Notes: generated from the letters alone by a model not told the origin. A stretch of 64,000 nt of DNA from Candidatus Nomurabacteria bacterium (GCA_023898525.1 CP060227.1:710440-774439), one strand, 5' to 3'; shown: positions 27,703-45,395, counted from the first letter of the stretch. A program made the numbers and translations.

Positions 27703-27703
27703 A

Positions 27704-29334: not shown

Positions 29335-29351
29335 GCGGTAGTTGTCTTTGG

Positions 29352-29838: not shown

Positions 29839-29845
29839 GATTAGT

Positions 29846-29867
29846 AAGTTTATCTTAAGATAAACTT
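29846..29867. promoter_or_regulatory. perfect 22-bp palindrome AAGTTTATCTT|AAGATAAACTT immediately upstream of the Phd antitoxin (operator candidate)
   Basis: Read directly from the sequence; located 8 nt upstream of the antitoxin start. Confidence 0.4.
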
Positions 29868-29878
29868 TGGATCAATAT

Positions 29879-30199
29879 CTATACTCCCGGTTTTTTCTCT
29901 CTTGTTCTAAAGCTAAAACCGGCTAATTTTTTGTGTAAAGAAAGGGTATGAAATATATGAGGAGCCAGCTCTCCGTTACAGTGTACCGCTACTTTTTGGG
30001 TGCTTTGGCCGCTGATAATCAATTCCATGCCGGCGGTAGTGAAGACTCCGGTTATATGACGTTTGCCGGTTTTGCTACGTCTTCTTTTAATAATTCCCGG
30101 AGAAACTAGAGTTACTCCAGGAATTGTTTCCAGTATTTGTACGACCCCCTCTGCCGTTTCGGTGAGGGTGGTGTGTGTCCCTCCACGAATTTTTTTCAT
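29879..30199 (-). CDS. hypothetical protein (106 aa)
   Basis: ORF with basic patch 'GIIKRRRSKTGKRHITG'; no confident family assignment. Confidence 0.35.
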   Translation of the reverse strand: MKKIRGGTHTTLTETAEGVVQILETIPGVTLVSPGIIKRRRSKTGKRHITGVFTTAGMELIISGQSTQKVAVHCNGELAPHIFHTLSLHKKLAGFSFRTREKKPGV

Positions 30200-30299
30200 G
30201 CTTATATAATGACATGAATTTGATTCTGTGTCTAGGATTTTACTAGTCTGAATTCAAATCAAAGACCACAGCGTATTACGCCGTGGCTTTTATAATGAG

Positions 30300-30857
30300 T
30301 TATTTCATCAATGGACTTTGTATCATCATTAGGTGTCGGTCTACCCACTTACCTTGTTTAAAAACTGACTTTGGTACAGTACCGATATGAGTGAAACCGC
30401 ATTTTTGGTAACATTTCATACCGCGTGGGTTGGTGCTCAGGACAGATAGGGTTATAGTGCGCAACCCTCGTTGTTTGAAAGACCAGTAGAGCATGGTCTC
30501 AAGAGTTTGCGTGCCATAGCCGTTACCCCAGTACTCTTTGTTGCCAATAGCTATGCCGAAGGAACCTTCAAGATGAACATTGTTTATTCGGTCAATTCCT
30601 GTGGTACCAATCAGCTTTTGGTCTTTTCTGTGGTATATTCCCAGCTGCAGCTTTTTATCATTTTTGTACATTTTTGAAATGTAGTCCTTCTCAAACTCGG
30701 TAGTGATTGGAAATTCGCCGCCGTTTAGAAATTGGTTAACCTCAGGATCTTGAAACCACTCTAGGATTTTGTGTGCATCATGTTCTTCCAGTAAAACTAA
30801 GTCAAGGTCCTTGGTGGTTAGAAAAACTTGCTGCTTGGTTTTAATGATTGTACTCAT
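30300..30857 (-). CDS. GNAT family N-acetyltransferase (RimJ/RimL-like)
   Basis: 'IAIGNKEYWGNGYGTQTLETMLYWSFKQRGLRTITLSVLSTNPRGMKCYQKCGF' is the acetyl-CoA binding motif region. Confidence 0.8.
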   Translation of the reverse strand: MSTIIKTKQQVFLTTKDLDLVLLEEHDAHKILEWFQDPEVNQFLNGGEFPITTEFEKDYISKMYKNDKKLQLGIYHRKDQKLIGTTGIDRINNVHLEGSFGIAIGNKEYWGNGYGTQTLETMLYWSFKQRGLRTITLSVLSTNPRGMKCYQKCGFTHIGTVPKSVFKQGKWVDRHLMMIQSPLMK

Positions 30858-31166
30858 TTAAAAGATCTCCTTATATATTTATTAGTAAAAACTGAAAGTC
30901 AAAATAAATAACCTCGACATCCAGTCGAGGTTATATTTTTTTAAATATAGAGACTTTTAATTAATTAAAACCATAACCACGACCAGATACCGGCGATGAA
31001 CTTATCGTCATGACTGAATATGACACGATAAAGAACTCAGTAATCACTGAAGTGTTCTTAATTAGGTTGTGGTTAATAATATTTTGCATGTATTAATGAA
31101 GACGGGTGGCGTCGGGGTTTCTTACGGTTATTTGTTGTTAATCTTAATTAATAAGATGGTACAATA

Positions 31167-32678
31167 ATGAGTAATAAATTATTTGTTAAGCCACGTTTTA
31201 TCATGCAAGTTCAAAAAGTTTCGCTTTCAGTTTTAGTTATCAGCTTTGTATTCGCCTTGCTTTTCTTCCTAGCCCCATCTTTTTCTTATGCTCAAGCAGT
31301 GGAAGACTGTCAATTTAGCCGCACCTTGGAGGATGGGGTTGATGGTGAGGATGTGCGCTGTTTGCAAAGGTATTTAAATGCTTCTGGTTTTCAAATTGCG
31401 GAAAGTGGCCCGGGGGCACCAGGAGGTGAAACTTCGCTTTTTCGAACTTTGACCAGGGAAGCGGTGGTTAAGTGGCAGCAGGCTAAAAAGATAACCCCGG
31501 CTAGTGGAGTGTTTGGAGATAAGTCTAGAGCGGTCTATATGATGGATGTCTTGGCTAAACTTCAATTAGAAAAAAGTAAACAGGAAGCACCTTTGGTGAC
31601 GATTAATCCTATATCTGTAGTTAAACCACAGCCGACTGTTGTGGCCCAAGTAACTAGCTCTAATACCAAGGACAAAGAAGAGGCAGAAAGACAAATAATA
31701 TTTGTTTTGGCTATGATAATCGACGCTTACGAAGAAATAGGTAATATACGTAGTGATGATCCAGACGAAGCTGCAGATATTGATGAAGATGTACAGAGTG
31801 CTTTGAGAGACTTAGGTGATGTCCTCGAACAATACTTTGACGGAGAATTTAAGAGATCTAAAAGTTTAGCCCTTGATGTGCTGGATGATGCGACTGATTC
31901 TTTTGAGGACGCTGGTGGTGAGTCAGATAAAAGCAAGGCCGAAGATATCCTTGATGATGTCGAAGATTTATACAATGACATTGATGATTTGATTGACGAG
32001 GCAGAAGACGAAGATGAAGAAGTGGGTGATGCTCCTGACTTACTAGGTGAAGCGAAAGATCACTTGGATGATGCCAAAGATGCTTTCGATGATGGTGTAT
32101 ATAGTCAGGCTATTAGTGACGCGCTTGATGCTGAGGAGCTGCTAGAGGAAGCCCGTGGCGAGATAGATATAATTTCAGAAAATGATGCAGAGGCGTTTGT
32201 TGAAGATGTGCGAGATGAGCTAGGAAATGCTAGGGATGAGGTAAGTGACTCTAATGCAGACAGGGATGATGTAGAGGAAGCCGAGGGTCTTCTTGATAGC
32301 GCGGAACGTCGTCTAAAGAAAGCTGACATAGCTGTTGATGAAGAAGATTTTCGTAAGGCCGCTGATCTGGCGAAAGAGGCAGAGGAAATGATAGACGAGG
32401 CCCTTGATTTGGTGGATGGGTCAACAAAACGTGACGATGATGATAAGGCAGAAGATGCTTTAGATGATGCTAAGGATGAGCTGGGAGATGCTTGGAAAAA
32501 AGCAGAGAAGGCAAGTGATAAGGGAAAAAGTACTCGTAGTACAGAAAAGAAGTTAGCTAAGGCCGATGATCTATTGGACGAAGCGGGAGATGCGCTGGAT
32601 GATGAGGATTATGATGAGGTGCTAGATTTGGTAGATGAGGCACTAGACTTGATTGATGAAGCTTTGGATGAGATTTAG
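31167..32678 (+). CDS. secreted acidic repeat protein with a putative peptidoglycan-binding (PG_binding_1-like) domain
   Basis: Signal/TM 'VSLSVLVISFVFALLFFLAPSFSYAQA'. PG-binding-like 'CLQRYLNASGFQIAESGPGAPGGETSLFRTLTREAVVKWQQAKKITPASGVFGDKSRAVY'. A ~350-aa D/E-rich repetitive region follows (LDDAKDAFDDG..., LDEAGDALDDEDYDEVLDLVDEALDLIDEALDEI). Confidence 0.55.
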   Translation: MSNKLFVKPRFIMQVQKVSLSVLVISFVFALLFFLAPSFSYAQAVEDCQFSRTLEDGVDGEDVRCLQRYLNASGFQIAESGPGAPGGETSLFRTLTREAVVKWQQAKKITPASGVFGDKSRAVYMMDVLAKLQLEKSKQEAPLVTINPISVVKPQPTVVAQVTSSNTKDKEEAERQIIFVLAMIIDAYEEIGNIRSDDPDEAADIDEDVQSALRDLGDVLEQYFDGEFKRSKSLALDVLDDATDSFEDAGGESDKSKAEDILDDVEDLYNDIDDLIDEAEDEDEEVGDAPDLLGEAKDHLDDAKDAFDDGVYSQAISDALDAEELLEEARGEIDIISENDAEAFVEDVRDELGNARDEVSDSNADRDDVEEAEGLLDSAERRLKKADIAVDEEDFRKAADLAKEAEEMIDEALDLVDGSTKRDDDDKAEDALDDAKDELGDAWKKAEKASDKGKSTRSTEKKLAKADDLLDEAGDALDDEDYDEVLDLVDEALDLIDEALDEI

Positions 32679-32704
32679 GATTAAGTAAAATAATTCATAA
32701 AACA

Positions 32705-32739
32705 AAAAACGGTTTTCGCTTTGCGAAAACCGTTTTTTT
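32705..32739 (+). terminator. intrinsic terminator (copy 1 of a repeated element)
   Basis: Hairpin AAAACGGTTTTCGC-ttt-GCGAAAACCGTTTTTTT; near-identical to 33477..33507. Confidence 0.65.
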
Positions 32740-32778
32740 CATTGTCGTATCATTATTTTTTATATATACTCTACGTAG

Positions 32779-33453
32779 ATGTGGATAGTATTTTATACGT
32801 TTTTAAATTGTTTGGAGGCAATAGCTGTGAATACTTATGAACAAGCTTTACAATATAGAGCAAATTGTTTGAGGAAATTTGCTGACAGTCATCCAGAGTT
32901 GTGTGACCAGTCAGGGGAGGCTTTTTGGCCAATTCCGGTCATGATGTCGCTTATTTTTTCCAGAGGAATTAATTTATTGCAGGAAGAAATTGTTTAACTA
33001 TACGCACAAAACAATTGGCCGTTAGCAGAAGAGGTGTCCAAGATAAGAAATTTACTGGTCAAATTAGCTGCTGAGGGTGATTTAGGGGAAGATCATGTCG
33101 CTCCTTATCTAGCAGATCATCCAACACTACCCTCTTCTTTTGGTGACGGTCATTTTTTTGAACATTATCAAAAAGTCTTAAAACTCAACGATCCATTTAA
33201 GATACTTGGTTTTTTATACAGTATTGAAGTTGGATCGCTCGAGTTTGTGAAAGTTTTGGTAGAGAGAGGCTTGGTTAAGGAAGGTGGTTTATTTGCAAAA
33301 ATACACTTGAAAGTAGAGGAAAAGCATCGTAATTTAGCGATTTCAATTAGGGAAATGGTTATGCCTGAAACTTTTCGCAATAAATATAGGGCCGGTTTTG
33401 TGGGCGGTTGTGAGCTTCATGACGCTATGTATAAAAAAATAGCCAATAGTTAG
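32779..33453 (+). pseudogene. hypothetical protein gene interrupted by an in-frame TAA (32995-32997)
   Basis: ORFs 32779..32997 and 33034..33453 are in the same frame, separated only by one TAA; their family resemblance is uncertain. Confidence 0.4.
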
Positions 33454-33476
33454 AAGGTTGTCGGCTATGATTTAAG

Positions 33477-33507
33477 GCGGTTTTCGCTTTGCGAAAACCG
33501 TTTTTTT
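33477..33507 (+). terminator. intrinsic terminator (copy 2 of the repeated element)
   Basis: Hairpin GGCGGTTTTCGC-ttt-GCGAAAACCGTTTTTTT. Confidence 0.65.
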
Positions 33508-33692
33508 GTTGACTATATTAGTAAGTTTTTGTATTGTTTGGGCTGGTTTAATGTTATGAGGGTTTGTTGTAATGAGAAAGAGAACTGGTATATATTTCGG
33601 TTATTTTACAGATGTGAGATTTAAAAATGGAAGTTATCATTTTGAATTTACACATCATAAACATGTTAGTTTAATAGAAGTACCAATCGATA

Positions 33693-33881
33693 TTGTCTGT
33701 AAAAAAAAGTGTGGATGATAGTTTTCAAGTTAAGCTTGTAATAACTAGAGAAAGGAGAGAACCTGTAAGGCAGTTAATAGTCGACAATACTTTGGTTGTT
33801 GTTGAATTTGAAGATGGAAACCTGAAGGAAGTATACACACTCAGTCCTCAGGGGGTCTATGGTATCCCTTCTAAGTCTTAG
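33693..33881 (+). CDS. small hypothetical protein (possibly the 3' part of a gene frameshifted at an A8 run, 33572..33881)
   Basis: TTG-start ORF followed by a strong terminator. The upstream ATG ORF (33572..33718, other frame) would fuse to it if the A8 run at 33701-33708 were A7. Confidence 0.3.
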   Translation: MSVKKSVDDSFQVKLVITRERREPVRQLIVDNTLVVVEFEDGNLKEVYTLSPQGVYGIPSKS

Positions 33882-33886
33882 GTCTT

Positions 33887-33925
33887 AAGCCCGACAGTCG
33901 CAAAGCGACTGTCGGGCTTGTTCAT
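33887..33925 (+). terminator. intrinsic terminator (right edge of island 1)
   Basis: Hairpin AAGCCCGACAGTCGC-aaa-GCGACTGTCGGGCTT. Confidence 0.6.
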
Positions 33926-33929
33926 TTCA

Positions 33930-34096
33930 TTGACTTTTTTCTTTATTTCCAGTATTCTAGCAGGCGTTCCAACCTCAGTGAGGAATTAAGGATTCTATCT
34001 AAATCCTTATGTGTCACCTCACAAAAGTTATGAAGTTTAAGGGTTGGGAACCTCTGTTAAGGACGGCCGTTACCTTTCTTTACAAGAGGTTCCCAA
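33930..34096 (+). promoter_or_regulatory. promoter (TTGACT-17nt-TATTCT) and structured leader upstream of rpsS
   Basis: -35 at 33930-33935 and -10 at 33953-33958. A 12-bp stem TTGGGAACCTCT/AGAGGTTCCCAA (34044-34055/34085-34096) encloses the palindromic ACGGCCGT. Confidence 0.35.
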
Positions 34097-34148
34097 AACG
34101 CACTGAATTTTTTATGAAAGTGTGTATTTATTCGTATTAGTTAAGTAT

Positions 34149-34490
34149 ATGTCACGATCACTCTATAAAGGACCATATGTAGATGAGAAGTTGTTGAAGA
34201 AGATCGCCGGAAAAAAACCCGGAGAGGGTGGTGTCATCAAAACTTGGGCTCGCGCATCAGTGATTTCGCCTGAGATGGTAGGCTTTACCTTTGGTGTCCA
34301 CAACGGAAAAACTCATATTGAAGTTTTGGTAGCAGAAGAAATGGTAGGCCATCGGCTTGGTGAATTCTCTCCAACTAAGAAGTTCCATCGTCATGGAGGT
34401 AAGATGCAGAAAGAACTAGAACAGAAGAAGAAGGAAGCAGAAATTGCTGCTGCTAAAGCCGCTAAGTCTGCTGCCACTAGTAAGAAATAG
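34149..34490 (+). CDS. rpsS: 30S ribosomal protein S19 (with Lys/Ala-rich C-terminal extension)
   Basis: Start trimmed to '[12 protein letters not shown]...'; '[40 protein letters not shown]'. Confidence 0.85.
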
Positions 34491-34493
34491 TTT

Positions 34494-34817
34494 ATGAAAG
34501 CAATTCTAAAAAATTACCGTCAGTCACCACGCAAAGTTCGTTTGGTCGCTGATGTGGTACGAGGAAAAAAAGTTGCTGACGCGCTAGCTACCCTACGATT
34601 TGTAGATAAGCGAGCGGCCGGCCCATTTGCAAAGGTGATTGAGTCTGCGGTTGCTAATGCTGTTCAGGCAGGTAAGCAAGCAGATAAACTCTTTGTTAAG
34701 AAAGTAGCGGTCGATAAAGGAATGGTATTGAAAAGATTCATGCCTCGTGCTCGCGGTTCTGCGTCACGCATTAACAAGCGAAATAGCCACATCTCAGTTG
34801 AGTTAGGTGAAAAATAA
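34494..34817 (+). CDS. rplV: 50S ribosomal protein L22
   Basis: 'AILKNYRQSPRKVRLVADVVRGKKVADALATLRF'. Confidence 0.85.
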   Translation: MKAILKNYRQSPRKVRLVADVVRGKKVADALATLRFVDKRAAGPFAKVIESAVANAVQAGKQADKLFVKKVAVDKGMVLKRFMPRARGSASRINKRNSHISVELGEK

Positions 34818-34822
34818 TATTT

Positions 34823-35539
34823 ATGACACACGTAGCACATCCATATGTACAACGTATTGGCGTAAATCGCGATTGGAAGAGTCGCTGGTTTACAGCTGAT
34901 CCAAAGAAGTTTCGCGAGTATCTACGTTCAGATGCTGCTATCCGAAAGTTTCTTCATAAGAAACTTAAGGGCATGTCAGTTGATACTGTAGAGATTGAGC
35001 GAAATCAAAAAGAGGTTCGTATTATTATCAAGACTTCACGACCAGGTTTGATTATTGGTCGCAGTGGTGAAGGAGCAACTAAGCTAAAGAAAGAAATTGA
35101 TCTATTACTTCGTTCACAAAAATTGACTGACAAACCGGAAGTCAAACTTGATATTGAAGAGGTTCGTTCTCCAGAGTCTAGTGCCAACATTGTTGGACAA
35201 ATGATTGCTGAAGGACTAGAAAAACGTATTACTTTTCGTCGAGTGATGAAGCAGACCATTGAAAAGGTGATGGCTAATCGCGATGTTCAGGGTGTACGTA
35301 TTATTCTTTCCGGTCGTCTTGGTGGCGCTGATATGGCCAGAAAGGAGGAATTAAAGAAAGGTCGAATCCCACTACAAACTTTGCGCGCTGATATTGACTT
35401 TGCTCGTGTTACTGCCAATTTGCCTTATGGTGCCATCGGTATCAAGGTTTGGATTTACCGCGGACAAGTCTTTGCCGATCGTCGTGGTGGTCAAGTTGAA
35501 GCCGCGACACGCGCAAATCACTTAGACCATAAAGCGTAA
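34823..35539 (+). CDS. rpsC: 30S ribosomal protein S3
   Basis: KH domain 'IIIKTSRPGLIIGRSGEG' and 'GVRIILSGRLGGADMARKE'. Confidence 0.9.
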   Translation: MTHVAHPYVQRIGVNRDWKSRWFTADPKKFREYLRSDAAIRKFLHKKLKGMSVDTVEIERNQKEVRIIIKTSRPGLIIGRSGEGATKLKKEIDLLLRSQKLTDKPEVKLDIEEVRSPESSANIVGQMIAEGLEKRITFRRVMKQTIEKVMANRDVQGVRIILSGRLGGADMARKEELKKGRIPLQTLRADIDFARVTANLPYGAIGIKVWIYRGQVFADRRGGQVEAATRANHLDHKA

Positions 35540-35551
35540 TCATACTGAATT

Positions 35552-35986
35552 ATGTTATTTCCAAAAAAAGTAAAACATCGCAAGTGGCAGGTTGGGCGCA
35601 AGAGTCCTGAGAAACTAAGTCGACCAGATACTCGTGGTATCACTGTTGCCTTTGGTACTTACGGACTACGCGCTACTTCACCGTCTCGCGTAAAATCAAA
35701 TCAAATTGAAGCAGCTCGTCGAGTGATTTCAAGAACCTTAGGTAAGACCGGTAGAATTTGGATTAGAATTTTCCCTGATCAGCCAATCACTAAAAAAGCG
35801 GCTGAAGTACCGATGGGTAAAGGAAAAGGAGATCCAGAGTACTTTGTTTTTGAAGTACATCCTGGTCGAATTCTTTTTGAGGTCGAAGGAGTACCAGAAG
35901 ATTTAGCTCGCGAAGCCTTTCGTAAGGCGGTAGCTAAGCTCCCATTACAAGGTAAACTCGTGCGTCGCGAAGAAACGACAGCGTAA
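35552..35986 (+). CDS. rplP: 50S ribosomal protein L16
   Basis: 'MLFPKKVKHRKWQVGR', 'RIFPDQPITKKAAEVPMGKGKGDPEYFV'. Confidence 0.9.
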   Translation: MLFPKKVKHRKWQVGRKSPEKLSRPDTRGITVAFGTYGLRATSPSRVKSNQIEAARRVISRTLGKTGRIWIRIFPDQPITKKAAEVPMGKGKGDPEYFVFEVHPGRILFEVEGVPEDLAREAFRKAVAKLPLQGKLVRREETTA

Positions 35987-35998
35987 TAATCTGAGCTT

Positions 35999-36199
35999 AT
36001 GATAAAAATGTCAGACATAAGAAGTAAGACGGATGCGGAGTTGACTGAGATCGTAAAATCCGCCCGTGAGACTGTTCGCGCTGAACGTTTCAAAGATAAA
36101 TTTAGTCGAAAGGCCGGTGTGATAAATGATGCTAAGCAAGAAATTGCCAGAGCTCTAACTGAACTATCAGCCCGTCGTCGTAATAATGACGCCAAATAA
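35999..36199 (+). CDS. rpmC: 50S ribosomal protein L29
   Basis: 'IRSKTDAELTEIVKSARETVRAERFK'. Confidence 0.8.
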   Translation: MIKMSDIRSKTDAELTEIVKSARETVRAERFKDKFSRKAGVINDAKQEIARALTELSARRRNNDAK

Positions 36200-36204
36200 T
36201 AAGT

Positions 36205-36465
36205 ATGACAACAGAAAATACAACAACTGTATCAAATCGTCGTACCTTGCGTGGCACTGTGGTTTCTACCAAAATGCAAGACACTATCACGGTAGCGGTC
36301 GAGCGTTATGTGAAGCATCCAAAGTACAAAAAGTTCATGCGACGCACGAAGAAATATTTGGTACACGATGCAGGTAATACTGCAAAAGAAGGAGAAGTGG
36401 TCGATATTAAAGAAGCACGCCCGTTTTCAAAGCGAAAGCGTTTTGAGCTCGTAAAGACAAAATAA
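36205..36465 (+). CDS. rpsQ: 30S ribosomal protein S17
   Basis: 'RRTLRGTVVSTKMQDTITVAVERYVKHPKYKKFMRRTKKYLVHD'. Confidence 0.85.
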   Translation: MTTENTTTVSNRRTLRGTVVSTKMQDTITVAVERYVKHPKYKKFMRRTKKYLVHDAGNTAKEGEVVDIKEARPFSKRKRFELVKTK

Positions 36466-36466
36466 T

Positions 36467-36838
36467 ATGATCCAACCACAAACAATAGTAAAAATCACTG
36501 ACAACTCAGGTGCCAAAATAGGACGTGTTTTCAAGGTGCTAGGTGGTTCAAAGAAACGCTACGCTGAGCTTGGGGAGATGGTGGTACTGTCAGTACAAAC
36601 AGCTGAGCCACGTAAGCAAGTGAAGAAAAAAGATGTTGTGTACGGGGTCGTCGTACGTCAGCGCAAGCCATTTCGTCGCAAGGATGGTTCCTATGTGAGC
36701 TTTGATGACAATGCCGTGGTGCTTGTCGATAAGGTTAAAAAAGAACCAAAAGCCAACCGTGTGTTTGGTCCAATTCCTCGCGAATTATCTGAGGCTGGTT
36801 ATCAGAAAATAGTTTCACTTGCACCTGAGGTGGTATAA
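36467..36838 (+). CDS. rplN: 50S ribosomal protein L14
   Basis: 'MIQPQTIVKITDNSGAKIGRVFKVLGG'. Confidence 0.9.
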   Translation: MIQPQTIVKITDNSGAKIGRVFKVLGGSKKRYAELGEMVVLSVQTAEPRKQVKKKDVVYGVVVRQRKPFRRKDGSYVSFDDNAVVLVDKVKKEPKANRVFGPIPRELSEAGYQKIVSLAPEVV

Positions 36839-36862
36839 GTAGACTAGTTAAATAGTATAACT

Positions 36863-37174
36863 ATGAAAATCAGAAAAGGAGATACAGTACAAATACTTGC
36901 CGGAAAAGATAAAGGTAAGACAGGAACAGTCCTAACCGCCTTACCTAGAACCGAACAGGTTATTATTGAAGGGGTAAATGTAGTCAAGAAACATCAGAAG
37001 AATCGTCGAACTCGTTCCCAAGGACAAATTATTGAGAAGAGCTTGCCGATACACGTATCAAATGTTGCCCTTATGGAGGGTGATAAGACTGTACGTGCCG
37101 GATATAGCTTTGAAGGTGAGGGTGAAAAGCGAAAGAAAATTCGCGTAGCTCGACCTAGCGGTAAGAAAATATAG
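36863..37174 (+). CDS. rplX: 50S ribosomal protein L24
   Basis: 'MKIRKGDTVQILAGKDKGKTGTV', KOW motif. Confidence 0.85.
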   Translation: MKIRKGDTVQILAGKDKGKTGTVLTALPRTEQVIIEGVNVVKKHQKNRRTRSQGQIIEKSLPIHVSNVALMEGDKTVRAGYSFEGEGEKRKKIRVARPSGKKI

Positions 37175-37175
37175 T

Positions 37176-37724
37176 ATGGAAACGATACAAACACGTATTA
37201 AAAATGCCTACGAGGCTATGAAAGGTGACTTTGGCTACAAAAATGTCATGCAGGCGCCGAAGATTGAAAAGATTGTGCTTTCAGTTGGTACTGGACGAGT
37301 ACAAGACAAAGCAAGAATTGCTTTAATCCAAGATCGTCTAGCTCGCATCACCGGACAAAAAGCGTCACCTAGGCCAGCTAAGAAATCAATTGCTTCATTT
37401 AAGCTTCGCGAAGGTGATGTGATCGGTTACCAAGTGACTTTGCGAGGAGCGCGCATGCGACATTTTCTTGATAAGCTGATCAATATCGCAATCCCTCAGA
37501 CTCGCGACTTTCACGGACTTAAGGTGACAGCGATAGACGATATGGGTAACTACACTATTGGAATCAAGGATCATACGATCTTTCCGGAGTGTAGTGATGA
37601 AGAGCTTAAAGATGTCTTCTCATTAGCTATCACTTTGGTGACTACCACCAAAGACAAGAAAGAAACTGAAGCCTTCTTGCGTCAGATTGGTTTGCCGCTT
37701 AAGAAGGAAGAAGAGGGTAAATAA
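37176..37724 (+). CDS. rplE: 50S ribosomal protein L5
   Basis: 'KNVMQAPKIEKIVLSVGTG', 'RDFHGL...GNYTIGIKDHTIFPE'. Confidence 0.9.
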   Translation: METIQTRIKNAYEAMKGDFGYKNVMQAPKIEKIVLSVGTGRVQDKARIALIQDRLARITGQKASPRPAKKSIASFKLREGDVIGYQVTLRGARMRHFLDKLINIAIPQTRDFHGLKVTAIDDMGNYTIGIKDHTIFPECSDEELKDVFSLAITLVTTTKDKKETEAFLRQIGLPLKKEEEGK

Positions 37725-37765
37725 TAATTTGGTTTTTTTAAACTTGATTTTAGTTACCAAGACAC

Positions 37766-37803
37766 GCAAAAACGCCGCCCATATATGGGCGGCGTTTTTG
37801 CGT
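37766..37803 (+). terminator. intrinsic terminator after rplE (left edge of island 2)
   Basis: Hairpin GCAAAAACGCCGCCC-atatat-GGGCGGCGTTTTTGC. Confidence 0.65.
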
Positions 37804-37876
37804 ACTTAAACCGATTATGAAAAAAGTAAAATACATGCTATATATAAATCAGATTAACTAGACATAAGGAGATGTT

Positions 37877-38398
37877 ATGAGTTCTGATTATTTTCAGGGA
37901 GTAGTTCTGCTACTGGTGTGTTTGCTACTATTGATACAGCCTATTATGAAATGGTATGCGTACTATACACCAAAGTACAGGCCGACTTTAGGCGGATTAA
38001 GAGAGCTTTGGAAAGAGTTAAAAAAGGATGTTTTTGGAGTTACTTTAGAATTAAATGGTGAGAAGGTGTCTGAAAATAGACTAAAAGAACTGATTGAGTC
38101 TCGTGGTTATATGAGTTCAGATTGGTCGGCCATTTTTACATATATACCTAGTCTAGAGCAAGGGATGCATGGTTCAATTGATTTCCGTGCTCTAGATACT
38201 GAACCCAGGAAGATTCATTTTCGTTCAAGCCAAAGCAATACTACGGTAACTTCAAACTGGGCTTTTGGTCTTAGGAAAGACGATATAGAAAAATTTAAAA
38301 CAATCGCTAAATATGGGATATCTTGTCCACCTCGGTGGCAGAAGGTTGTCTTCTATCTTGCACCGTCTTTTTATGTAAAAAAATATTTTCAAAGTTAA
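37877..38398 (+). CDS. hypothetical membrane-anchored protein
   Basis: RBS AGGAG before the ATG; N-terminal TM 'VVLLLVCLLLLIQPIMKWY'; no recognisable family. Confidence 0.45.
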   Translation: MSSDYFQGVVLLLVCLLLLIQPIMKWYAYYTPKYRPTLGGLRELWKELKKDVFGVTLELNGEKVSENRLKELIESRGYMSSDWSAIFTYIPSLEQGMHGSIDFRALDTEPRKIHFRSSQSNTTVTSNWAFGLRKDDIEKFKTIAKYGISCPPRWQKVVFYLAPSFYVKKYFQS

Positions 38399-38481
38399 GT
38401 ATAATATGTTCGTTTAAGCGCCGCGTTTACTGTGGCGCTTTTTCAAATCAGGGTTTAAAAAATGTTATTATATTATGCATT

Positions 38482-39327
38482 ATGTACATAATATTTGATA
38501 TCGGGGGGACAAAGACACGGGTGGCGGCAAGCGAGGATCTTAAGACTTATGGTACGCCACTAAAATTTGACACCCCACTAAATTATGGAGAAGCAATTGC
38601 GGTAATCAGTAAGGCAATAGAAGAAGTTAGTCAGGGTAAGGAAATTAAAGGAATGGCAGGCGGAATTCGTGGTCGACTAAGGCGCGACAAGAGTGGACTC
38701 ATGGGTGAGGTGGTTTTGACCGATTGGGTGGACAAGCCATTGGTTGATGATCTAAGTAAGAAGTTTGGTGCGCCGGTTTTCATAGAAAATGACACGGCTA
38801 TTGTGGGTCTTGGAGAGGCTGTTTTCGGTGCCGGGCACGGCTATGATATTGTAGCCTATCATACGGTCAGTACTGGAGTTGGAGGAGCTAGATTGGTTGG
38901 AGGGAAGGTTGATGTGGCTAGTATTGGCTTTGAACCTGGACACCAGATTCTAGATTTAGATCAGAGTATTTTTGGTAAAGAAACTTTGCATACACTAGAA
39001 AATCTGGTTTCCGGTACCGCTCTACAAGATCGTCGAGGAGTGAAGCCTTACGAAATAGACCAGTCTGATCCGGTTTGGGATGAGTTGGCTTATTATTTGG
39101 CGGTTGGTCTTCGCAACACCATTTTGTACTGGTCGCCGGACGCGATTGTGCTTGGTGGTTCAATGGTGGTGGGTGATCCGCGTATTTTTAGAGAGGATAT
39201 TATAAAACATACCGAAAAAGTGCTAGACGGCTTTGTACCGTGTCCACCTATTCTTGATGCGACTCTAAAAGATGAAGGAGGTTTATATGGAGCGATAGCA
39301 CTGTTGTCAGAGAAGCTTGGTAAGTAG
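38482..39327 (+). CDS. ROK/BadF-type sugar kinase family protein (glucokinase/N-acetylglucosamine kinase-like)
   Basis: Start trimmed to 'MYIIFDIGGTKTRVAA' (ATP-binding phosphate-1 motif); 'FIENDTAIVGLGEAVFGAGHG' and 'VSTGVGGARLVGGK'. Confidence 0.65.
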   Translation: MYIIFDIGGTKTRVAASEDLKTYGTPLKFDTPLNYGEAIAVISKAIEEVSQGKEIKGMAGGIRGRLRRDKSGLMGEVVLTDWVDKPLVDDLSKKFGAPVFIENDTAIVGLGEAVFGAGHGYDIVAYHTVSTGVGGARLVGGKVDVASIGFEPGHQILDLDQSIFGKETLHTLENLVSGTALQDRRGVKPYEIDQSDPVWDELAYYLAVGLRNTILYWSPDAIVLGGSMVVGDPRIFREDIIKHTEKVLDGFVPCPPILDATLKDEGGLYGAIALLSEKLGK

Positions 39328-39361
39328 GTTTGGTTTTAAAAGGTAAAAAAAGTAAGAGGGT

Positions 39362-39400
39362 AAAACAAGTAGGGTGGCCGAAGGCCGCCCTACTTGTTTT
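39362..39400 (+). terminator. intrinsic terminator hairpin (copy 1 of a repeated element)
   Basis: AAAACAAGTAGGGTGGCC-gaa-GGCCGCCCTACTTGTTTT; differs at 2 positions from the copy at 41569..41607. Confidence 0.6.
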
Positions 39401-39444
39401 ACATAGTAACAGCAATTAATACACGTAAGTATTGCTATAATTAT

Positions 39445-41551
39445 CTTATGTCAAATCCAGAAATAATAAAGTATGTAAAACAGCAGCTATCAGCTGGGTA
39501 CTCTAAAGAGAAAATAATCAAAGTTCTACTTTCAAGTGGTTGGAAAAAAGAAGATATTGACAATGCTTTTATAGAGGCTGAAGGAGGGGTTTATGAGTTA
39601 AATCAAACCGAAGGCATTACTGACTTACGGATAAATAACAGTTTGGAAGCTGCAGATAAAGAAGTTGTGGAGAAAGAAACTATTTCTGAGATAACTGAAC
39701 CAAAGGCTAACTTAACACCGGTTTTTAGTATTAGCGACAGTAATTGCCGGAGTTACTTTGTTTGGGGTTATTCAGATTAGCTACAATCAATCAATAATAT
39801 TTAATATTTTTAATCTCTTTGCCATACCAGCTTATGTGGTGGTCGGTATCTTGGTGTTTATATCACTGCGAATATTTAAACGTTTGTACAGAACTACAGG
39901 TAAATCCATCCGGTCTTTTTTGATGATTTTATCCACATACTTTTTAAGTATAATCGCTCTCATATATTTGTTTTATTTAGGAGTTGAACTCTATTCGGTT
40001 AACATACCCGGCACATCTATGTGGGGTTATTTCTTTGTAGCTGCGACTGCTGTACAGATATCTTATGCTGTATTTCATCTAGGTCTTGTCCTATTGATGG
40101 TTTTAATGATTAAGAACATTAAGAAAAAGCCAGTATCGGCATCGGCTGCTGAGTCGAGTCCAATGTTTGTGAAGATAAGTAATGTGACTATATCTATTGC
40201 TGTGTTGTTGCTTATTTATTTTCTGGGTTTGGTGTCTCCGCTTGCAAAAATGACGGGGTCGCAATCTTTATGTAGCCTCGTTTACCATACACATGTTAAG
40301 ACAGAGTGTTTAACGGAAAACTCTATAAATATTAAGGATTCGGTTTATAAAACTGAAGCGGGTAATTTTGGTGTCATTGTCGATGATGAAATGATAGGTG
40401 ATATTGAAGTGGTGGGCGATAAGATAGTTTATACTCTCGTGGAGCGTGAAATGGGCAATACTGTTGTATCTGTTGTTTATGATGGTAAGGTTTTGGGTGA
40501 ATATGAGGCTGTATACAGACTTACAGACCTAGATGGCAAATTAGCTTACTTGATTGAGAATAAAACAGGATCCAGAAGCCCGTATACTCTATTTTATGAT
40601 GGAGAAAAATATATGGATCTCAACAAAGATGTTTATGATTTAACAAATATAAATGGAAAGGTAGCCTTTAAGGTATATGATATGAATAACCCTTACGTAT
40701 ACTTTGATGGGAAGAATTATAACAATAATTATGTTTATGTAGATTTACTTATTGCTTATTCTGGTCAGCCAGCCTTTGTCGGCAAAAGAGATTCACAATA
40801 TTATATTGCAATAGGAGACCAGGAGTTTGGTCCTTATTCAGGTATGGGTACTTTGGATGAGAAAGACGGACACTTGTTTTCATTAATTATAAATAACGGA
40901 GACCTACAGGCTTTTGTGGACGGACAAGTTGGTTGGATAGGAAAAAAGTATAATGATGATAAGATCACATCCTTTGCTAATAATAGTAGCTTAGGAAAGG
41001 TGAGAAGGATAGTTGATCTAATTGACGGTCAGTTATCAACTGTTGTCAGCAAAAACGGTAAGGGCGTATTAGTTGTTGGAGATCAGGAAGTGACAGAAGT
41101 AGCCTCTTATGATTCCGGACCATATATTATTGACGGCAAGTTAGGTTACTTGGCTTTAAATAGCGACGGTTCATCACAATTTATGATTGATGATCAGATG
41201 GTGCCTAATAATATCTTTAATGAGCCTGTCTATGATGTGGCTGTATCAAAGTCAGGTAAAATTGCTGTCCAAACCAAAGATAAAAATGACGTTATCAGGG
41301 TCTATGTTGATGGACAGATTGTATATGAAGGAGGTGCTAGTATTAACAGTATACAAAAAGGTATAAATTTTGTAGGAGATAAGTTGCTTTTTAGTATCAC
41401 AGGAAGTGATGGGGTTTCGGATCTTTGGTATAACAACGCAATTATTAAAGGTAATTATCTAAATTTTAAACAAACTATTGCTTTGAATGATAAGTTATTG
41501 ATTTTTGCAGAGAAAAAAGATGGTAAGGGTATTATTTTGTTAGAACAGTGA
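39445..41551 (+). CDS. hypothetical multi-TM protein with a large beta-rich repeat ectodomain; apparent +1 frameshift at a T5 run (39722-39726)
   Basis: Frame-1 ORF (MSNPEIIKYVKQQLSAGYSKEKIIKV...) ends at 39780. Frame-2 upstream of the annotated 39758 start reads 'FLVLATVIAGVTLFGVIQ...' (TM helices) with no start codon. Deleting one T from the T5 run fuses the frames. The C-terminal domain has repeated 'YxDGK/VxDGQ' beta-strand modules. Confidence 0.45.
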
Positions 41552-41568
41552 TTTTAGTATGTGACTAT

Positions 41569-41607
41569 AAAACAAGTGGGGCGGCCGAAGGCCGCCCTAC
41601 TTGTTTT
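41569..41607 (+). terminator. intrinsic terminator hairpin (copy 2 of the repeated element)
   Basis: AAAACAAGTGGGGCGGCC-gaa-GGCCGCCCTACTTGTTTT. Confidence 0.6.
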
Positions 41608-41666
41608 CTCAAACCAAAAGTGTAACATTGCAAATCTGAATAACAACTGGTTCTTTGGAGGGTAAG

Positions 41667-41900
41667 ATGAAGATCAGAACCATGCTCCTACTGTTCTTGG
41701 TACTGCTATCACCAACCTGTGTTAAGGCAAAGATTGTTCACATAGAGCATTTTATATTAGTAGCCAATATAAATATTCACAGCCATCAGCTCCCTGGCTT
41801 AAGGTACTGTGTTCAAACTGTGAGCCGACCGGTTTATATAGATAACCTCGGTCACCCAGTCCTGGGTGTCAGAAAGGTAGAAATAAGGTGTCATAATTAA
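41667..41900 (+). CDS. small secreted hypothetical protein (signal peptide)
   Basis: RBS GGAGGG before ATG 41667; 'MKIRTMLLLFLVLLSPTCVKA' is signal-peptide-like. Confidence 0.4.
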   Translation: MKIRTMLLLFLVLLSPTCVKAKIVHIEHFILVANINIHSHQLPGLRYCVQTVSRPVYIDNLGHPVLGVRKVEIRCHN

Positions 41901-41928
41901 GTTAGTATATTAGGTGATAAGGTTAAGT

Positions 41929-41959
41929 AAAAATCCCCGACCGGTGCGGGGATTTTTTT
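41929..41959. terminator. bidirectional intrinsic terminator
   Basis: Hairpin AAAAATCCCCG-accggtg-CGGGGATTTTTTT between convergent genes. Confidence 0.65.
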
Positions 41960-41961
41960 AG

Positions 41962-42360
41962 TTATGAGCTGAGAGAAAGTATAGCTGCAACTCTTTCTTT
42001 CGTTTCGGTGTACGAATCATTTCCTGGATCTAACTCTATTGCCATTTCTATAAAATATAATGCCTCGTTGTTATTTTGTAATGACAGTATTGATCCCAAA
42101 ACATAAGCAGCTTTGGCCAAGTTAAGCTTATGTTTCTCTTGGCAATCACAATCCATCTCTTTTGAGGTGTTGTATTCTTCAGAAGCGTTTCTAAAAGTTT
42201 GGCGGGCAAAGGCCTCGGCCTCTGTCTGCTTCCCTATAGATACAAAAGCGTGGATCTTGTCATAATGTACAATTACCTCGGAACAACTTTCTTTATAAAT
42301 AAAAAACAACGAAATAATCAACGGCATTACAGCTACAAGAATCGTTATTATTTTCTTCAT
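41962..42360 (-). CDS. small membrane-anchored TPR-like protein
   Basis: N-terminal TM 'IITILVAVMPLIISLFFIY'; TPR-like 'AAYVLGSILSLQNNNEALYFIEMAIELDPGN'. Confidence 0.45.
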   Translation of the reverse strand: MKKIITILVAVMPLIISLFFIYKESCSEVIVHYDKIHAFVSIGKQTEAEAFARQTFRNASEEYNTSKEMDCDCQEKHKLNLAKAAYVLGSILSLQNNNEALYFIEMAIELDPGNDSYTETKERVAAILSLSS

Positions 42361-42420
42361 CAGCTTTTCCTTGTACTTAGTTGAACAGATTTACGGATAA
42401 CAATACAACATAAAAGATAA

Positions 42421-42456
42421 AAAACAACCCCGAAACGAGTTCGGGGATTTTGGGTT
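42421..42456. terminator. intrinsic terminator hairpin
   Basis: CCCCGAA-cgag-TTCGGGG flanked by A-run and T-run. Confidence 0.55.
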
Positions 42457-42462
42457 TATATC

Positions 42463-42957
42463 TTATAGCTCTTTTATCTTTCCAGAAGGATAAGCGATAA
42501 ATAAAGGTCTATGATCCTGGATTTTTATTGTATAAGGATCGACCTCTAATACTTTTATTGGTTTGTGAAGAATTTTCGATAATTCCAGAAAATTTTTATG
42601 GGAGCGAGGAAATGCGCCAAGATCCTCATAGTCTTTAATCTCTAGAGGTAGTTCAACTTCTGCATATTTAAGTGTATGTCTGTTCAATCCACCCCAACTA
42701 AAATTAAAAGGAAAGTTTCTAGGTACTGGCTCTGTTTGAGGGTTAAAAACCGGACGTAACATTTGTGGTGTTACTCCAATGGCTATTAGGAGATCTTCTA
42801 AATTAACGTCATAGTCTTCACCAATAAATATGTAGGTGTGCATGTCGATTCTATTGCAATGTGACTTTGCATCAAAAATAAGTATATCAGCCTCTACAAA
42901 TTTTTGCCTTATTTCTACATACAGTTCAGCAATTTCTTTTGTATATTCATATCCCAT
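42463..42957 (-). CDS. hypothetical protein
   Basis: Start trimmed to ATG (MGYEYTKE...), preceded by AAGGAG with a 5-nt spacer; no recognisable family. Confidence 0.45.
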   Translation of the reverse strand: MGYEYTKEIAELYVEIRQKFVEADILIFDAKSHCNRIDMHTYIFIGEDYDVNLEDLLIAIGVTPQMLRPVFNPQTEPVPRNFPFNFSWGGLNRHTLKYAEVELPLEIKDYEDLGAFPRSHKNFLELSKILHKPIKVLEVDPYTIKIQDHRPLFIAYPSGKIKEL

Positions 42958-43065
42958 TTCTTCTCCTTTCAATGAGTATTTGTAAAAAATTACATTTACG
43001 AATTTCCTTAAGTATTTAATAACGAATTAGTAGAAAAGTCAATGGTTTGTAATAGATTGAAACGA

Positions 43066-43093
43066 TTGACAATACCTATATTTCTGATATTCT
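43066..43093 (+). promoter_or_regulatory. sigma70-like promoter (TTGACA-16nt-TATTCT) restarting the spc segment upstream of rpsN
   Basis: -35 at 43066-43071 and -10 at 43088-43093; ~160-nt leader before the GTG start of S14. Confidence 0.35.
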
Positions 43094-43252
43094 TCTTGGC
43101 AAGGCGATGGGTGGGTAACTCGTAAGAAAACCTGGCCGGAGCTGCTTGATTTGCCCAAATTTGAATAAATTTATGAGCAAATTAAGCGATTATCAGGAAG
43201 TAAGTCACGACAAACTACGTGATACTACTTCATAGAAATAACTAAATAAAAA

Positions 43253-43438
43253 GTGGCGAAAATTTCAGTAAAGGTTCGCGCTACGCGCGAACCAAAATTC
43301 GCTTCCAGAGTCGTAAGACGCTGTAAGTTGTGTGGTCGCAAACACGGATACATGCGGGATTTTGATGCCTGCCGAATCTGTTTTCGCGAGTTAGCCCATG
43401 AGGGACATATACCAGGTATAAAGAAATCATCATGGTAG
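43253..43438 (+). CDS. rpsZ: 30S ribosomal protein S14 type Z (zinc-binding)
   Basis: 61 aa with '[23 protein letters not shown]' (CxxC...CxxC); GTG start. Confidence 0.85.
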
Positions 43439-43830
43439 GAGATATTATTGGCGACATGATCATTCGTCTAAAGAATGCCGGAGTGGTAGGTAAGAAAGAG
43501 GTAGAAATGCCTTACTCTAAGCTTCGTCATGCGGTAGCGGATAAACTGGTCGCAGCCGGATATATAGAGAAGGCCGAGCAACAAGGAAAGAGGGATAAGG
43601 TTCAAAAAACCTTAGTGGTGACTTTGAAGTATGAGGACGGACGACATCGAATTGATGGTGTTAAACGTATCTCAAAACCAGGTCGTCGCCTATACACAAA
43701 GGTCGCAAATATTCACAAAGTTAAGTTTGGTAAAGGGCATATGATCCTATCTACACCAGCTGGTATTCTCACTAATGAGGAGGCTAAGGCTAAAAATGTA
43801 GGTGGTGAACAGCTTTTTATCATTTGGTAA
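43432..43830 (+). CDS. rpsH: 30S ribosomal protein S8
   Basis: '[28 protein letters not shown]', '[17 protein letters not shown]'. Confidence 0.85.
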
Positions 43831-43834
43831 ACGT

Positions 43835-44365
43835 ATGAGTCGATTAGGAAAACAACCAGTAACCATTCCAGCCGGTGTCACAGTTACTTGTGATGGTGGA
43901 TTACTAACGGTAACCGGACCAAAAGGTACTCTAAAAAGAGACGTTAAGTCAGATGTGGTATTTGCAATTGATGGTAATACTTTGACTCTAACACCAAAGG
44001 ACACTCCAGACGCACCTGCTTTGTGGGGTACTTATGCCGCTCATGTACGCAATATGATCAAGGGTGCAACCGAAGGTTTCACCAAAATTCTTGATATTGA
44101 GGGAGTTGGGTACAGGGCTGAAGTTAAGGGTAATACTTTGGTACTTAACATGGGCTTTTCACACCCCGTACCGCTAGAAGTGCCAGAAGGATTGTCGGCT
44201 GTTGTCGAAAAGAGTTCTATCACTCTAAGTGGAGCTGATAAGGACTTGCTCGGGCAATTTGCTGCCAATGTACGTAAAGTACGAAAACCAGAGCCATACA
44301 AAGGTAAAGGAATTCGATACCGAGGAGAGTATATTATTCGCAAACAAGGTAAAAAGGCTGCGTAA
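43835..44365 (+). CDS. rplF: 50S ribosomal protein L6
   Basis: Start trimmed to 'MSRLGKQPVTIPAGVTVT'; 'GYRAEVKGNTLVLNMGFSHPV'. Confidence 0.85.
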   Translation: MSRLGKQPVTIPAGVTVTCDGGLLTVTGPKGTLKRDVKSDVVFAIDGNTLTLTPKDTPDAPALWGTYAAHVRNMIKGATEGFTKILDIEGVGYRAEVKGNTLVLNMGFSHPVPLEVPEGLSAVVEKSSITLSGADKDLLGQFAANVRKVRKPEPYKGKGIRYRGEYIIRKQGKKAA

Positions 44366-44386
44366 GGCCGTAATTCAATTTGAGCT

Positions 44387-44737
44387 ATGGAAAAAACACA
44401 GTATAAAAATACAAAGCGCGCCTCTCGTCACAATCGAATTCGCGCCAAGGTAACTGGAACAGCTGAGCGTCCACGACTAGCTGTCTTTAGAAGCAATCGC
44501 TTCATCTATGCCCAGCTAATCAATGATGTAACAGGGAAAACTTTAGCAGCAGCCGATTCTCGGAAAGTTGAAGGAAAGACTTTGACTGAGCGAGCTAATG
44601 CTGTTGGTACAGTAATTGCTAAAAAAGCTAAAGAAGCCGGAGTAGAAAAGGTGGTCTTTGACCGCGGAGGATATCGTTACCAGGGGACAGTAGCGTCACT
44701 AGCTGATAGTGCACGAGCTGGAGGTTTGGTATTTTAA
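44387..44737 (+). CDS. rplR: 50S ribosomal protein L18
   Basis: '[27 protein letters not shown]', '[12 protein letters not shown]'. Confidence 0.85.
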
Positions 44738-44756
44738 AAAATTAAACTAAAAAATA

Positions 44757-45395
44757 ATGTCAGAAACAAAACAGCAGGAAGCTACAACTGACTCAGTGTC
44801 AGAAGCAGAAGTGGCAACAGTCGCTTCGACCGATGCACCAGCTGTGCCTGAATCAGGAGAAAAAGGAACTGAACGAAACGGGCGCGGGCGCAGAGGTCAA
44901 GGAGGAAACGAAAGACGAGGTCAGCGTCGTCCCAGGCGTGGTGGTCGCCCAGAGAGGGTTCGCCCAGAATTTGATCAAAAAATTATCAGTATCCGTCGAG
45001 TTACTCGTGTGATGGCCGGTGGTCGTCGCTTCAGTTTTTCAGTGTCGATGGTGATTGGTGATAAGAAAGGTAAGGTTGGTGTTGGTATCGGTAAGGCTGG
45101 TGATACACAGCTAGCTATTGAAAAGGCGGTACGCGACGCTAAGAAGAACATGATTGTGGTGACTATGAACAAAGATAGTCATATTCCCCACGATGTACAT
45201 ACTAAGTATGCATCTAGTGAGGTGATGATTATGCCGGCTCCCGGTCGTGGGTTGGTGGCTGGATCTTCAGTGCGTACCGTACTCGAACACGCTGGAGTGA
45301 AGGATGTTACTGCAAAAATCTTTTCACGCAGTAAGAACAAACTTAACAACGCTCGTGCTGCAATCGAAGCACTTAAACTTCTAAGAAAAAACTAG
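44757..45395 (+). CDS. rpsE: 30S ribosomal protein S5 (with Arg/Gly-rich N-terminal extension)
   Basis: 'IISIRRVTRVMAGGRRFSFSVSMVIGDKKGKVGVGIGKAGDTQLAIEKA'. Confidence 0.9.
   Translation: MSETKQQEATTDSVSEAEVATVASTDAPAVPESGEKGTERNGRGRRGQGGNERRGQRRPRRGGRPERVRPEFDQKIISIRRVTRVMAGGRRFSFSVSMVIGDKKGKVGVGIGKAGDTQLAIEKAVRDAKKNMIVVTMNKDSHIPHDVHTKYASSEVMIMPAPGRGLVAGSSVRTVLEHAGVKDVTAKIFSRSKNKLNNARAAIEALKLLRKN

Follow-up and report, generated by a model that had tools for sequence, protein, structure and literature searches.

In the 64,000-nt stretch of a Candidatus Nomurabacteria genome analysed here (CP060227.1:710440-774439; hereafter the window, with positions counted from its first letter), the genes for the ribosomal proteins L5 (rplE) and S14 (rpsN) are separated by a 5.5-kb block of six non-ribosomal genes, as recognised from open reading frame (ORF) calls and Pfam. 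Ordinary and orphan genes have accumulated here in layers within an ancestral gap, and the block is not a single island that split the operon. In the overall reading that I favour, with a probability of about 0.72, the break between L5 and S14 is an ancestral terminator-promoter boundary, which tolerates insertions and has been filled in layers, and behind which the S14 unit restarts with its own promoter and a mimic of the site where ribosomal protein S8 binds 16S ribosomal RNA (rRNA). The ribosomal row in this lineage (Patescibacteria, class Paceibacteria; Candidatus Nomurabacteria in the source records) appears from its sequence to be built as separate units, in which S19...L5 ends in a terminator and S14-S8-L6...SecY restarts at a sigma-70-type promoter; terminator, promoter or leader evidence exists for three ribosomal-protein units.

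I compared 35 genome loci fetched via L5 and 44 metagenome loci fetched via S8, onto which the ribosomal and the island proteins were mapped (loci are cited by number, L002 being the closest relative). L5 and S14 are set apart by 51-5528 nt in every one of the 42 distinct related loci, the window having the longest spacer, and by at most 29 nt in the three distant outgroups L079, L081 and L083. The short spacers (90-200 nt) still read as a hairpin with a T-run, followed by TTGACA/TAnnnT and then by a leader, and spacers of more than 300 nt within the ribosomal row are almost confined to two junctions, L2-S19 and L5-S14. The terminator-promoter boundary is common to all examined relatives and therefore older than the island. 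An earlier note by a model that saw only this DNA (the sequence-only reading) had proposed that an island split the spc operon, which is not borne out, as the break is present in 42 of 42 relatives, including those without any inserted gene. That note also counted at least four transcription units in the ribosomal supercluster; the evidence here covers three.

Against such a general boundary it can be said that its elements are not demonstrable everywhere: of the 42 related loci, a simple scanner gives a terminator 3' of L5 in 27 and a strict promoter in 19. Promoter, terminators and unit independence are all read from sequence and conservation only. In three loci of one sub-clade (L024, L028 and L030) no rpsN is found within 3.6-10 kb 3' of L5, where a conserved set of unrelated genes lies instead; the S14...SecY unit appears to have been relocated as a whole. 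In L008, L015-L017 and L023 the S14 is longer, its N-terminus reaching upstream of the short zinc-type form, and the type of S14 thus varies within the clade at the same junction.

What fills the gap changes quickly, because loci with and without the ROK-family sugar kinase are interleaved in one clade of a rough neighbour-joining tree of five ribosomal proteins; ORFs lying in the gaps of one locus are for the most part unrelated to those of another. The proposal of an accessory island holds in part: the block is real and non-ribosomal and its content differs among relatives, but the break is ancestral, and the ROK gene and those for proteins of 77 and 132 aa are conserved in place. A synteny comparison, suggested at the time as a check for ancestral conserved content, divides the block in this manner, with these three genes kept at their position and the 173-aa, the frameshifted 700-aa and the 164/169-aa genes specific to this genome. 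The guanine plus cytosine (GC) content of the latter is 0.34-0.37, compared with 0.456 for ROK. In L002 the order is ROK, one hairpin, an 81-aa secreted protein, a 162-aa TPR-like protein (minus strand) and the S14 promoter, and the genes for 77 and 132 aa correspond in position, though with weak similarity, to their orthologues, the 81-aa (E = 4e-4) and the 162-aa ORF (E = 5e-5), respectively.

DNA that arrives between a terminator and the next promoter would disturb neither unit, and such a boundary would therefore tolerate insertions and come to be filled with different genes in each lineage. The older layer would here comprise the native-looking ROK gene, the secreted mini-protein and the TPR-like protein, which are common to L002, and the younger layer the three AT-richer orphan genes. 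The youngest recognisable event would be the 2.2-kb membrane-protein gene, which sits at the place of the single ROK terminator of L002, is flanked by two copies of it and may already have been inactivated by its frameshift.

Two further parts of the sequence-only reading stand, namely that rplE ends at 37724 with a strong terminator and that S14 restarts at 43253 behind a TTGACA-16-TATTCT promoter (Table 1). Promoter-like sites as such occur at chance level in the region (37 found, 35.3 expected from shuffles), and the S14 promoter is credible because it is conserved together with the downstream leader (GGCAAGGCG) in L002, L004, L085 and L087, not because of the motif match alone. The last hairpin of this leader reads GAAGU-A-A-G-UCACG / loop / CGUGA-UA-C-U-ACUUC and has a GGAUUUAU flank. 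Its core, AAGUCA at 43202-43207 and UGAUACU at 43220-43226, is identical to A595-A600 and U638-U644 in helix 21 of the Escherichia coli 16S rRNA, and the E. coli core sequence was verified as 16S rRNA in all 5426 E. coli genomes. The recognition core of S8 consists of the triples A595-(A596-U644) and (G597-C643)-U641 together with the invariant A642 (PMC4176348). In 34 distinct leader sequences the equivalents of G597, U598, A640, A642 and C643 are invariant, and both stems covary: 93% of the cells are paired, versus 76.8% in shuffles and 28-50% in slid registers, and 92 cells show double changes, versus 28.6 in shuffles (0/500 reach the observed value), with double changes in 9 of the 13 pairs. 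Over 926 kb, a covariance model gave a single site in each locus, invariably on the coding strand and upstream of rpsN, and no other match in the window. The distance to the rpsN start is mostly 21-37 nt (27 nt here); in about nine loci it is 82-174 nt, and a second element intervenes in several of these.

The hairpin is probably an autoregulatory operator for S8, though a putative one. When in excess over 16S rRNA, S8 would bind the leader 27 nt upstream of the rpsN start and would lower the translation of S14 and, via the overlapping start, that of S8 and the genes behind it; the 7-nt overlap of rpsN and rpsH implies translational coupling. On the other side of the balance, a model built from the leaders matches the E. 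coli 16S gene at the 5' part of the expected site (nt 594-645), but weakly and without significance (5 bits, E = 2.7), with one other weak match on the opposite strand of the gene and a long distal extension in E. coli helix 21; 12 of the 34 sequences lack the 596-644 pair in the register used; the hairpin lies 21-37 nt upstream of the start codon and not over the start as in E. coli; and the 16S rRNA with which its core was compared is that of E. coli. The more distant relatives lack the hairpin and have other short leaders instead.

The target site of the S8 translational operator in the E. coli spc operon was reportedly described by Cerretti and co-workers in 1988, and an S8-mRNA structure is said to have been published by Merianos and co-workers in 2004. 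There, as here, the S8 site of 16S helix 21 is copied by a helix of the mRNA that contains an asymmetric internal loop, and this helix sits in the transcript that encodes S8, with translationally coupled downstream genes. However, the E. coli operator overlaps the start of rplE, whereas the present element belongs to the 5' leader that precedes rpsN, with rplE in another transcription unit, 5.5 kb upstream behind a terminator; the host is a member of the Patescibacteria, and S8 binding and repression are predictions. Because of this different placement the leader would work like the E. coli site but would not be a member of that RNA family. Rfam 15 holds no family that matches the S14 leader: a search of the window at gathering scores, and one of the two leaders (S14 and S19) at E-value thresholds of 10 and 1, gave chance-level matches only. 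Two surveys of ribosomal-protein leaders do not report an S8 leader outside the E. coli type, and in the literature searched there was no S8 or rpsN leader and no interrupted spc operon in Patescibacteria (the candidate phyla radiation, CPR). Most ribosomal-protein regulatory RNAs of E. coli are narrowly distributed to Gammaproteobacteria, as the title of one such survey states (Fu et al. 2013, PMC3616713).

The S8-site mimic is a variant of a known regulatory principle and the most interesting element between rplE and rpsN. The rpsN leader would be a second, independently placed S8 operator outside the Gammaproteobacteria, recognisable from sequence because it copies the rRNA site nucleotide for nucleotide, and it offers a testable case of autoregulation that moves when an operon is cut anew, in a phylum in which almost nothing is known of regulation.

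Other leaders were seen in these loci. A second conserved one, at 34041-34100 (+) in the window, precedes rpsS (S19), with a promoter-like site at 33930-33958 and a terminator at 33886-33920. It forms a 12-bp stem around an invariant GGCCGUUACCU core, is common to 11 related loci and has no Rfam match; five pairs of the stem show double changes, and 92% of the cells are paired versus 42-61% in slid registers. It is a candidate ribosomal-protein leader. A third type, GUUCCAGGAAU-[hairpin]-AUUCGGAACUAAAUUCnnAAUAGUCnCU..GCUCC..UCAUUUAAUG, stands directly 5' of the start codon in other loci but not in this window, namely before rpsN in L054, L056, L063-L065, L077, L085 and L087, and before rpsS in L011, L063, L067 and L072. 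As it precedes S14 in some loci and S19 in others (in L063 both), the same element is found on two ribosomal-protein units.

The S10-spc-alpha cluster of ribosomal protein genes is contiguous in most bacteria, and its order S19-L22-S3-L16-L29-S17-L14-L24-L5-S14-S8-L6-L18-S5-L15-SecY is kept here. The difference is that L2-S19 and L5-S14 are open in the whole clade, with 0.05-5.5 kb of variable DNA, contiguity being seen here only in the outgroups L079, L081 and L083; moreover, the spc operon of E. coli begins at rplN (before L14), whereas the boundary of the unit here lies between rplE and rpsN. Uncultured bacteria are placed on the tree, and genome bins judged, with a contiguous row of ribosomal protein genes as the standard marker block. 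A whole class of Patescibacteria with two fixed openings, holding up to several kb of changing genes, affects binning, synteny annotation and marker extraction. It also shows where tiny genomes tolerate new genes. Insertion hotspots are known from comparative genomics to occur between conserved core genes of chromosomes, and the present junctions share with them fixed flanks, a variable cargo mostly of unknown function and fast turnover among close relatives, but they lie inside the most conserved gene row of the genome, carry no mobility genes and hold single genes, each with a terminator.

The frameshifted multi-membrane-span protein with a repeat ectodomain, which the sequence-only reading had recognised, is confirmed. 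Deleting one T from the T5 run at 39722-39726 fuses two ORFs of 110 and 597 aa in adjacent frames into a 700-aa protein with an N-terminal domain of ~45 aa, five predicted membrane helices and a 414-aa all-beta repeat ectodomain. A structural model of the ectodomain has a pLDDT (predicted local distance difference test) of 70 and is all beta, and a fold search gave only generic beta-propeller matches with a template modelling (TM) score of about 0.3. Among 5.8 billion proteins two clusters match the 700-aa protein, one of which is the protein itself. The homologue (P0002) is an intact protein of 689 aa, which aligns over 100% of the 700-aa protein at 63% identity and reads straight through the junction; its gene lies in a non-ribosomal neighbourhood adjoining an IS30-like transposase, and its surroundings, when examined for hairpins, had none. 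Two contigs match the window exactly at this site and both have the frameshift, and a truncated call on a third contig, of 1.09 Mb, fits it too. A programmed frameshift was judged unlikely, as good +1 re-pairing is not possible on CCG GUU UUU AGU and P0002 has no frameshift, and the gene is more likely a pseudogene. It has to be held against this that all three assemblies may come from one sampling site, so that the frameshift could be a population variant.

That two near-identical 39-nt hairpins flank this gene had also been seen correctly: the copies at 39362 and 41569 differ at 2 positions. Exactly two copies exist in the 64 kb (0 expected by chance), and their number remains two even with 3 mismatches allowed. 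Neither the 40 loci that were searched nor viral contigs contain a copy, and a REP-like (repetitive extragenic palindromic) element, which had been suggested as a possibility, is thus not borne out in the searched DNA. The hairpins share with REP elements, bacterial interspersed mosaic elements (BIMEs) and bidirectional terminators their GC-rich perfect palindromes, their intergenic location and their A- and T-tract flanks, but differ from REP and BIME elements in forming two local copies around one gene and no dispersed family in 64 kb. L002 has a single homologous hairpin (flanks AAAACA...ACTTGTTTTC) between ROK and the small secreted gene, to which the second copy in the window is homologous, whereas in the window the 2.2-kb gene stands between two copies, and this is exactly the segment absent from L002. 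The two loci thus differ by an insertion or deletion whose ends are marked precisely by the pair. A gain of the gene in the lineage of the window would be more parsimonious, since L085 and L087 also lack it and its only homologue lies elsewhere; that the direction (gain here or loss in L002) rests on parsimony counts against it. The stretch following the stop of the frameshifted gene agrees with that following the stop of the L002 ROK gene at 13 of 16 nt, which was judged too short for interpretation.

Duplicated palindromic terminators within 8 kb of each other were found seven times in ~1 Mb of loci, always at L2-S19 or L5-S14, and four of the seven bracket one gene. The ROK gene of L085 (5920/6857) and L087 (5932/6848) is bracketed by near-identical copies of the L5 terminator, and in both loci the copies have a common loop specific to the lineage, a sign of gene conversion or of a recent duplication. 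Within the window's first island, between L2 and S19, a 139-aa ORF is bracketed by identical 30-nt hairpins (32710-32739 and 33478-33507), and further duplicates in these junctions are found in L049 (7109/7267), L023 (6070/6349) and L035 (4235/4729); the spacing in all these cases apart from the 39-nt pair is 0.1-0.9 kb. The location of all seven cases in two junctions is suggestive only, because the sampled loci were centred on those junctions. Local duplication followed by gene conversion could have produced the pairs, and so could recombination at the hairpin.

One could assume that a dedicated recombination system acts at the paired hairpins, or that they are dispersed REP-like copies, and that single-gene cassettes are thereby moved into terminators, each gene being left between two copies. 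Both the seven duplications at these two junctions, four of them around one gene, and the exact delimitation of the segment missing in L002 would agree with this. I nevertheless consider it unlikely, as scans with Pfam, NCBIfam and PADLOC revealed no recombinase near the hairpins, the 39-nt hairpin recurs neither in the rest of the 64 kb nor in the 40 loci or the viral contigs, the hairpins resemble ordinary A-tract/stem/U-tract terminators whose sequence varies between lineages, the sampling is biased towards the two junctions, and local duplication with gene conversion also explains the pattern. An integron-like reading of the hairpins was rejected, as there is no intI, and the sequence, read by eye and not with a tool, has no RYYYAAC/GTTRRRY boxes of the attC type (R/L). 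It is likewise improbable, if the most far-reaching view of these data, that L2-S19 and L5-S14 are landing pads at which single genes are integrated at terminator hairpins by a hairpin-duplicating mechanism, as a form of cassette exchange without a recognisable recombinase in very small genomes, beside a previously undescribed class of S8 operator that would keep the downstream unit autonomous. In that view the two copies, the hairpin being a perfect palindrome, would be direct and inverted repeats at once and could later delete or invert the gene between them.

The remaining alternatives concern the block as a whole. An assembly artefact, either a chimeric join or a repeat collapsed at the palindromic hairpins, is extremely improbable. 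The contig JACKGB010000006.1 (81 kb), from a metagenome-assembled genome at NCBI, encodes the exact rplE protein and is identical to the window at 27176-41235, and the Logan contig SRR12358676_225800 (7 kb, a separate assembly, from a run on the activated-sludge source community) is identical to it at 37774-44785, from the island through S14, S8, L6 and L18. It could be taken as a sign of misassembly that the former stops within the island at 41235 and the latter begins within the terminator palindrome of rplE at 37774; however, they agree at 100% in a common stretch of 3.4 kb and jointly span both junctions, the frameshifted ORF and its repeats continue unbroken through 41235, an NCBI contig of 1,087,875 bp carries the same ROK protein and the truncated call of the frameshifted gene, and L002, L085 and L087 independently show L5-ROK-...-S14. 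The earlier concern over a chimeric contig is thereby settled. It is very unlikely, too, that a single horizontally acquired island or mobile element inserted into an intact spc operon and split it. The GC content of the island (0.371, versus 0.415 for the window), the three orphan genes that the relatives lack and the IS30-like transposase beside the homologue of the frameshifted gene elsewhere would suit such an event, but no integrase, transposase or recombinase was found in the block when its proteins were scanned with Pfam, NCBIfam, PHROGs and PADLOC, a scan of the 64-kb window for transfer RNA (tRNA) genes found none, and no repeats pair the outer borders of the island. In addition, the break exists in all 42 relatives, with or without an inserted gene, ROK is core-like and kept at its position in four lineages, and the content of the block is layered and not of one age. 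A phage or defence reading was dropped, as PHROGs and PADLOC gave nothing usable on the island proteins.

Alternatively, the position itself may be functional, with ROK and perhaps its neighbours kept beside rplE because read-through of the terminator couples their expression to ribosome synthesis and growth rate. ROK is indeed found immediately 3' of L5 and on the same strand in four lineages, and the gene is widespread and conserved in the class, but a very stable terminator separates rplE from the DNA downstream, in this genome the 173-aa gene and a second terminator intervene between rplE and ROK, the close relatives L003, L004, L048, L049 and L044/45 have no ROK at this position, and L088 has it elsewhere; I regard this explanation as doubtful. 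With an ancestral break that tolerates insertions, the preferred reading, each gene in the island would be insulated by a hairpin of its own; hairpins of -11 to -36 kcal/mol are found 3' of every island gene.

Table 1. Features from the end of rplE to rpsH in the window, with the evidence for each
Feature	Position	Strand	Remarks
rplE (L5)	37176-37724	+	Pfam Ribosomal_L5 and L5_C; last gene of the upstream unit S19...L5
Predicted intrinsic terminator 3' of rplE	37764-37803	+	Perfect 20+20 palindrome, -34.3 kcal/mol, z = -9.4 vs shuffles, then UUUUUG
173-aa ORF	37877-38398	+	One N-terminal hydrophobic helix; AAGGAG upstream; GC 0.370
Predicted terminator hairpin 3' of the 173-aa ORF	38416-38445	+	-15.6 kcal/mol
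ROK-family sugar kinase, 281 aa	38482-39327	+	PF00480, 110 bits; GC 0.456
Hairpin copy 1, predicted ROK terminator	39362-39400	+	-35.6 kcal/mol
Frameshifted gene	39448-41551	+	Frame break at T5 run 39722-39726; GC 0.351
Hairpin copy 2, predicted terminator of the frameshifted gene	41569-41607	+	-32.3 kcal/mol
77-aa ORF, signal-like N-terminus	41667-41900	+	Fast-evolving positional orthologue of the L002 81-aa ORF
Predicted bidirectional terminator of the convergent 77-aa and 132-aa genes	41929-41957		-14.7 kcal/mol
132-aa ORF	41962-42360	-	N-terminal hydrophobic segment, weak TPR-like C-terminus; positional orthologue of the L002 162-aa ORF
164-aa cytoplasmic orphan protein	42463-42957	-	169 aa if read from TTG at 42972; GC 0.341
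Predicted S14...SecY promoter	43066-43093	+	TTGACA-16-TATTCT, TG preceding the -10 hexamer
5' leader, ~150 nt	43100-43252	+	Three hairpins predicted; -42.9 kcal/mol, z = -3.4
S8-site-mimic hairpin	43197-43231	+	Covariance-model match 43182-43237, 64.7 bits
rpsN (S14), 61 aa, zinc type CxxC...CxxC	43253-43438	+	GTG start; Pfam S14 1.1e-22
rpsH (S8)	43432-43830	+	Start overlaps the rpsN end by 7 nt (ATGGTAG)

The genes in the island seem unremarkable, comprising a sugar kinase, some orphan proteins of the secreted or membrane kind and one probable pseudogene. The list given by the sequence-only reading is right for the ROK kinase and the frameshifted gene, whereas its TPR label is weak (TPR_1 at E = 0.022, under the Pfam cut-off). 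The kinase matches PF00480 with 110.1 bits against a cut-off of 22.9, residues 4-276 covering positions 4-293 of the 294 in the profile, and all matches to the substrate-specific glucokinase and fructokinase models of NCBIfam stay far below their cut-offs (e.g. ROK_glcA_fam, 80.9 versus 260). The zinc-binding motif of the ROK family is CxCGxxGCxE; at its place the protein reads GHQILDLDQSIFGKETLHTLENLVSG, without cysteines there, and the N-terminal DIGGT motif is present. Besides the window, ROK follows L5 in L002 (79% identity), L085 (77%) and L087 (75%), and in L088 a homologue with 70% identity sits elsewhere. With thousands of close homologues in the class and a core-like GC content, it looks like a native gene.

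The 173-aa ORF has no match in Pfam, NCBIfam, PHROGs or PADLOC and is absent from all related loci examined. The 164/169-aa protein belongs to an orphan family with 38 representatives among 1.84 billion proteins in an exhaustive search, while a word-indexed search with the 169-aa form returned only the protein itself. Its AlphaFold2 model (164 aa) has a pLDDT of 93 and no structural match in PDB or BFVD. One of the relatives from the exhaustive search is a protein of 2430 aa with eight matching stretches.

Two other parts of the window deserve mention. The first island (27400-34100), between L2 and S19, carries, according to the gene calls on the identical NCBI contig, a ParE/RelB toxin-antitoxin pair, an SNase-domain protein, an acetyltransferase and a 503-aa protein with a PG_binding_1 domain; ~3 kb of it (31156-34144) are common to L002. 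Large repeated coding segments are found at 16118-18470 and 55367-58861, in which stretches of up to 300 nt are 100% identical and of 215 nt 95% identical; the local GC content is about 0.50-0.52, well above the window mean of 0.415. The second copy appears to be split into the overlapping ORFs 55368-57989 and 57860-58861.

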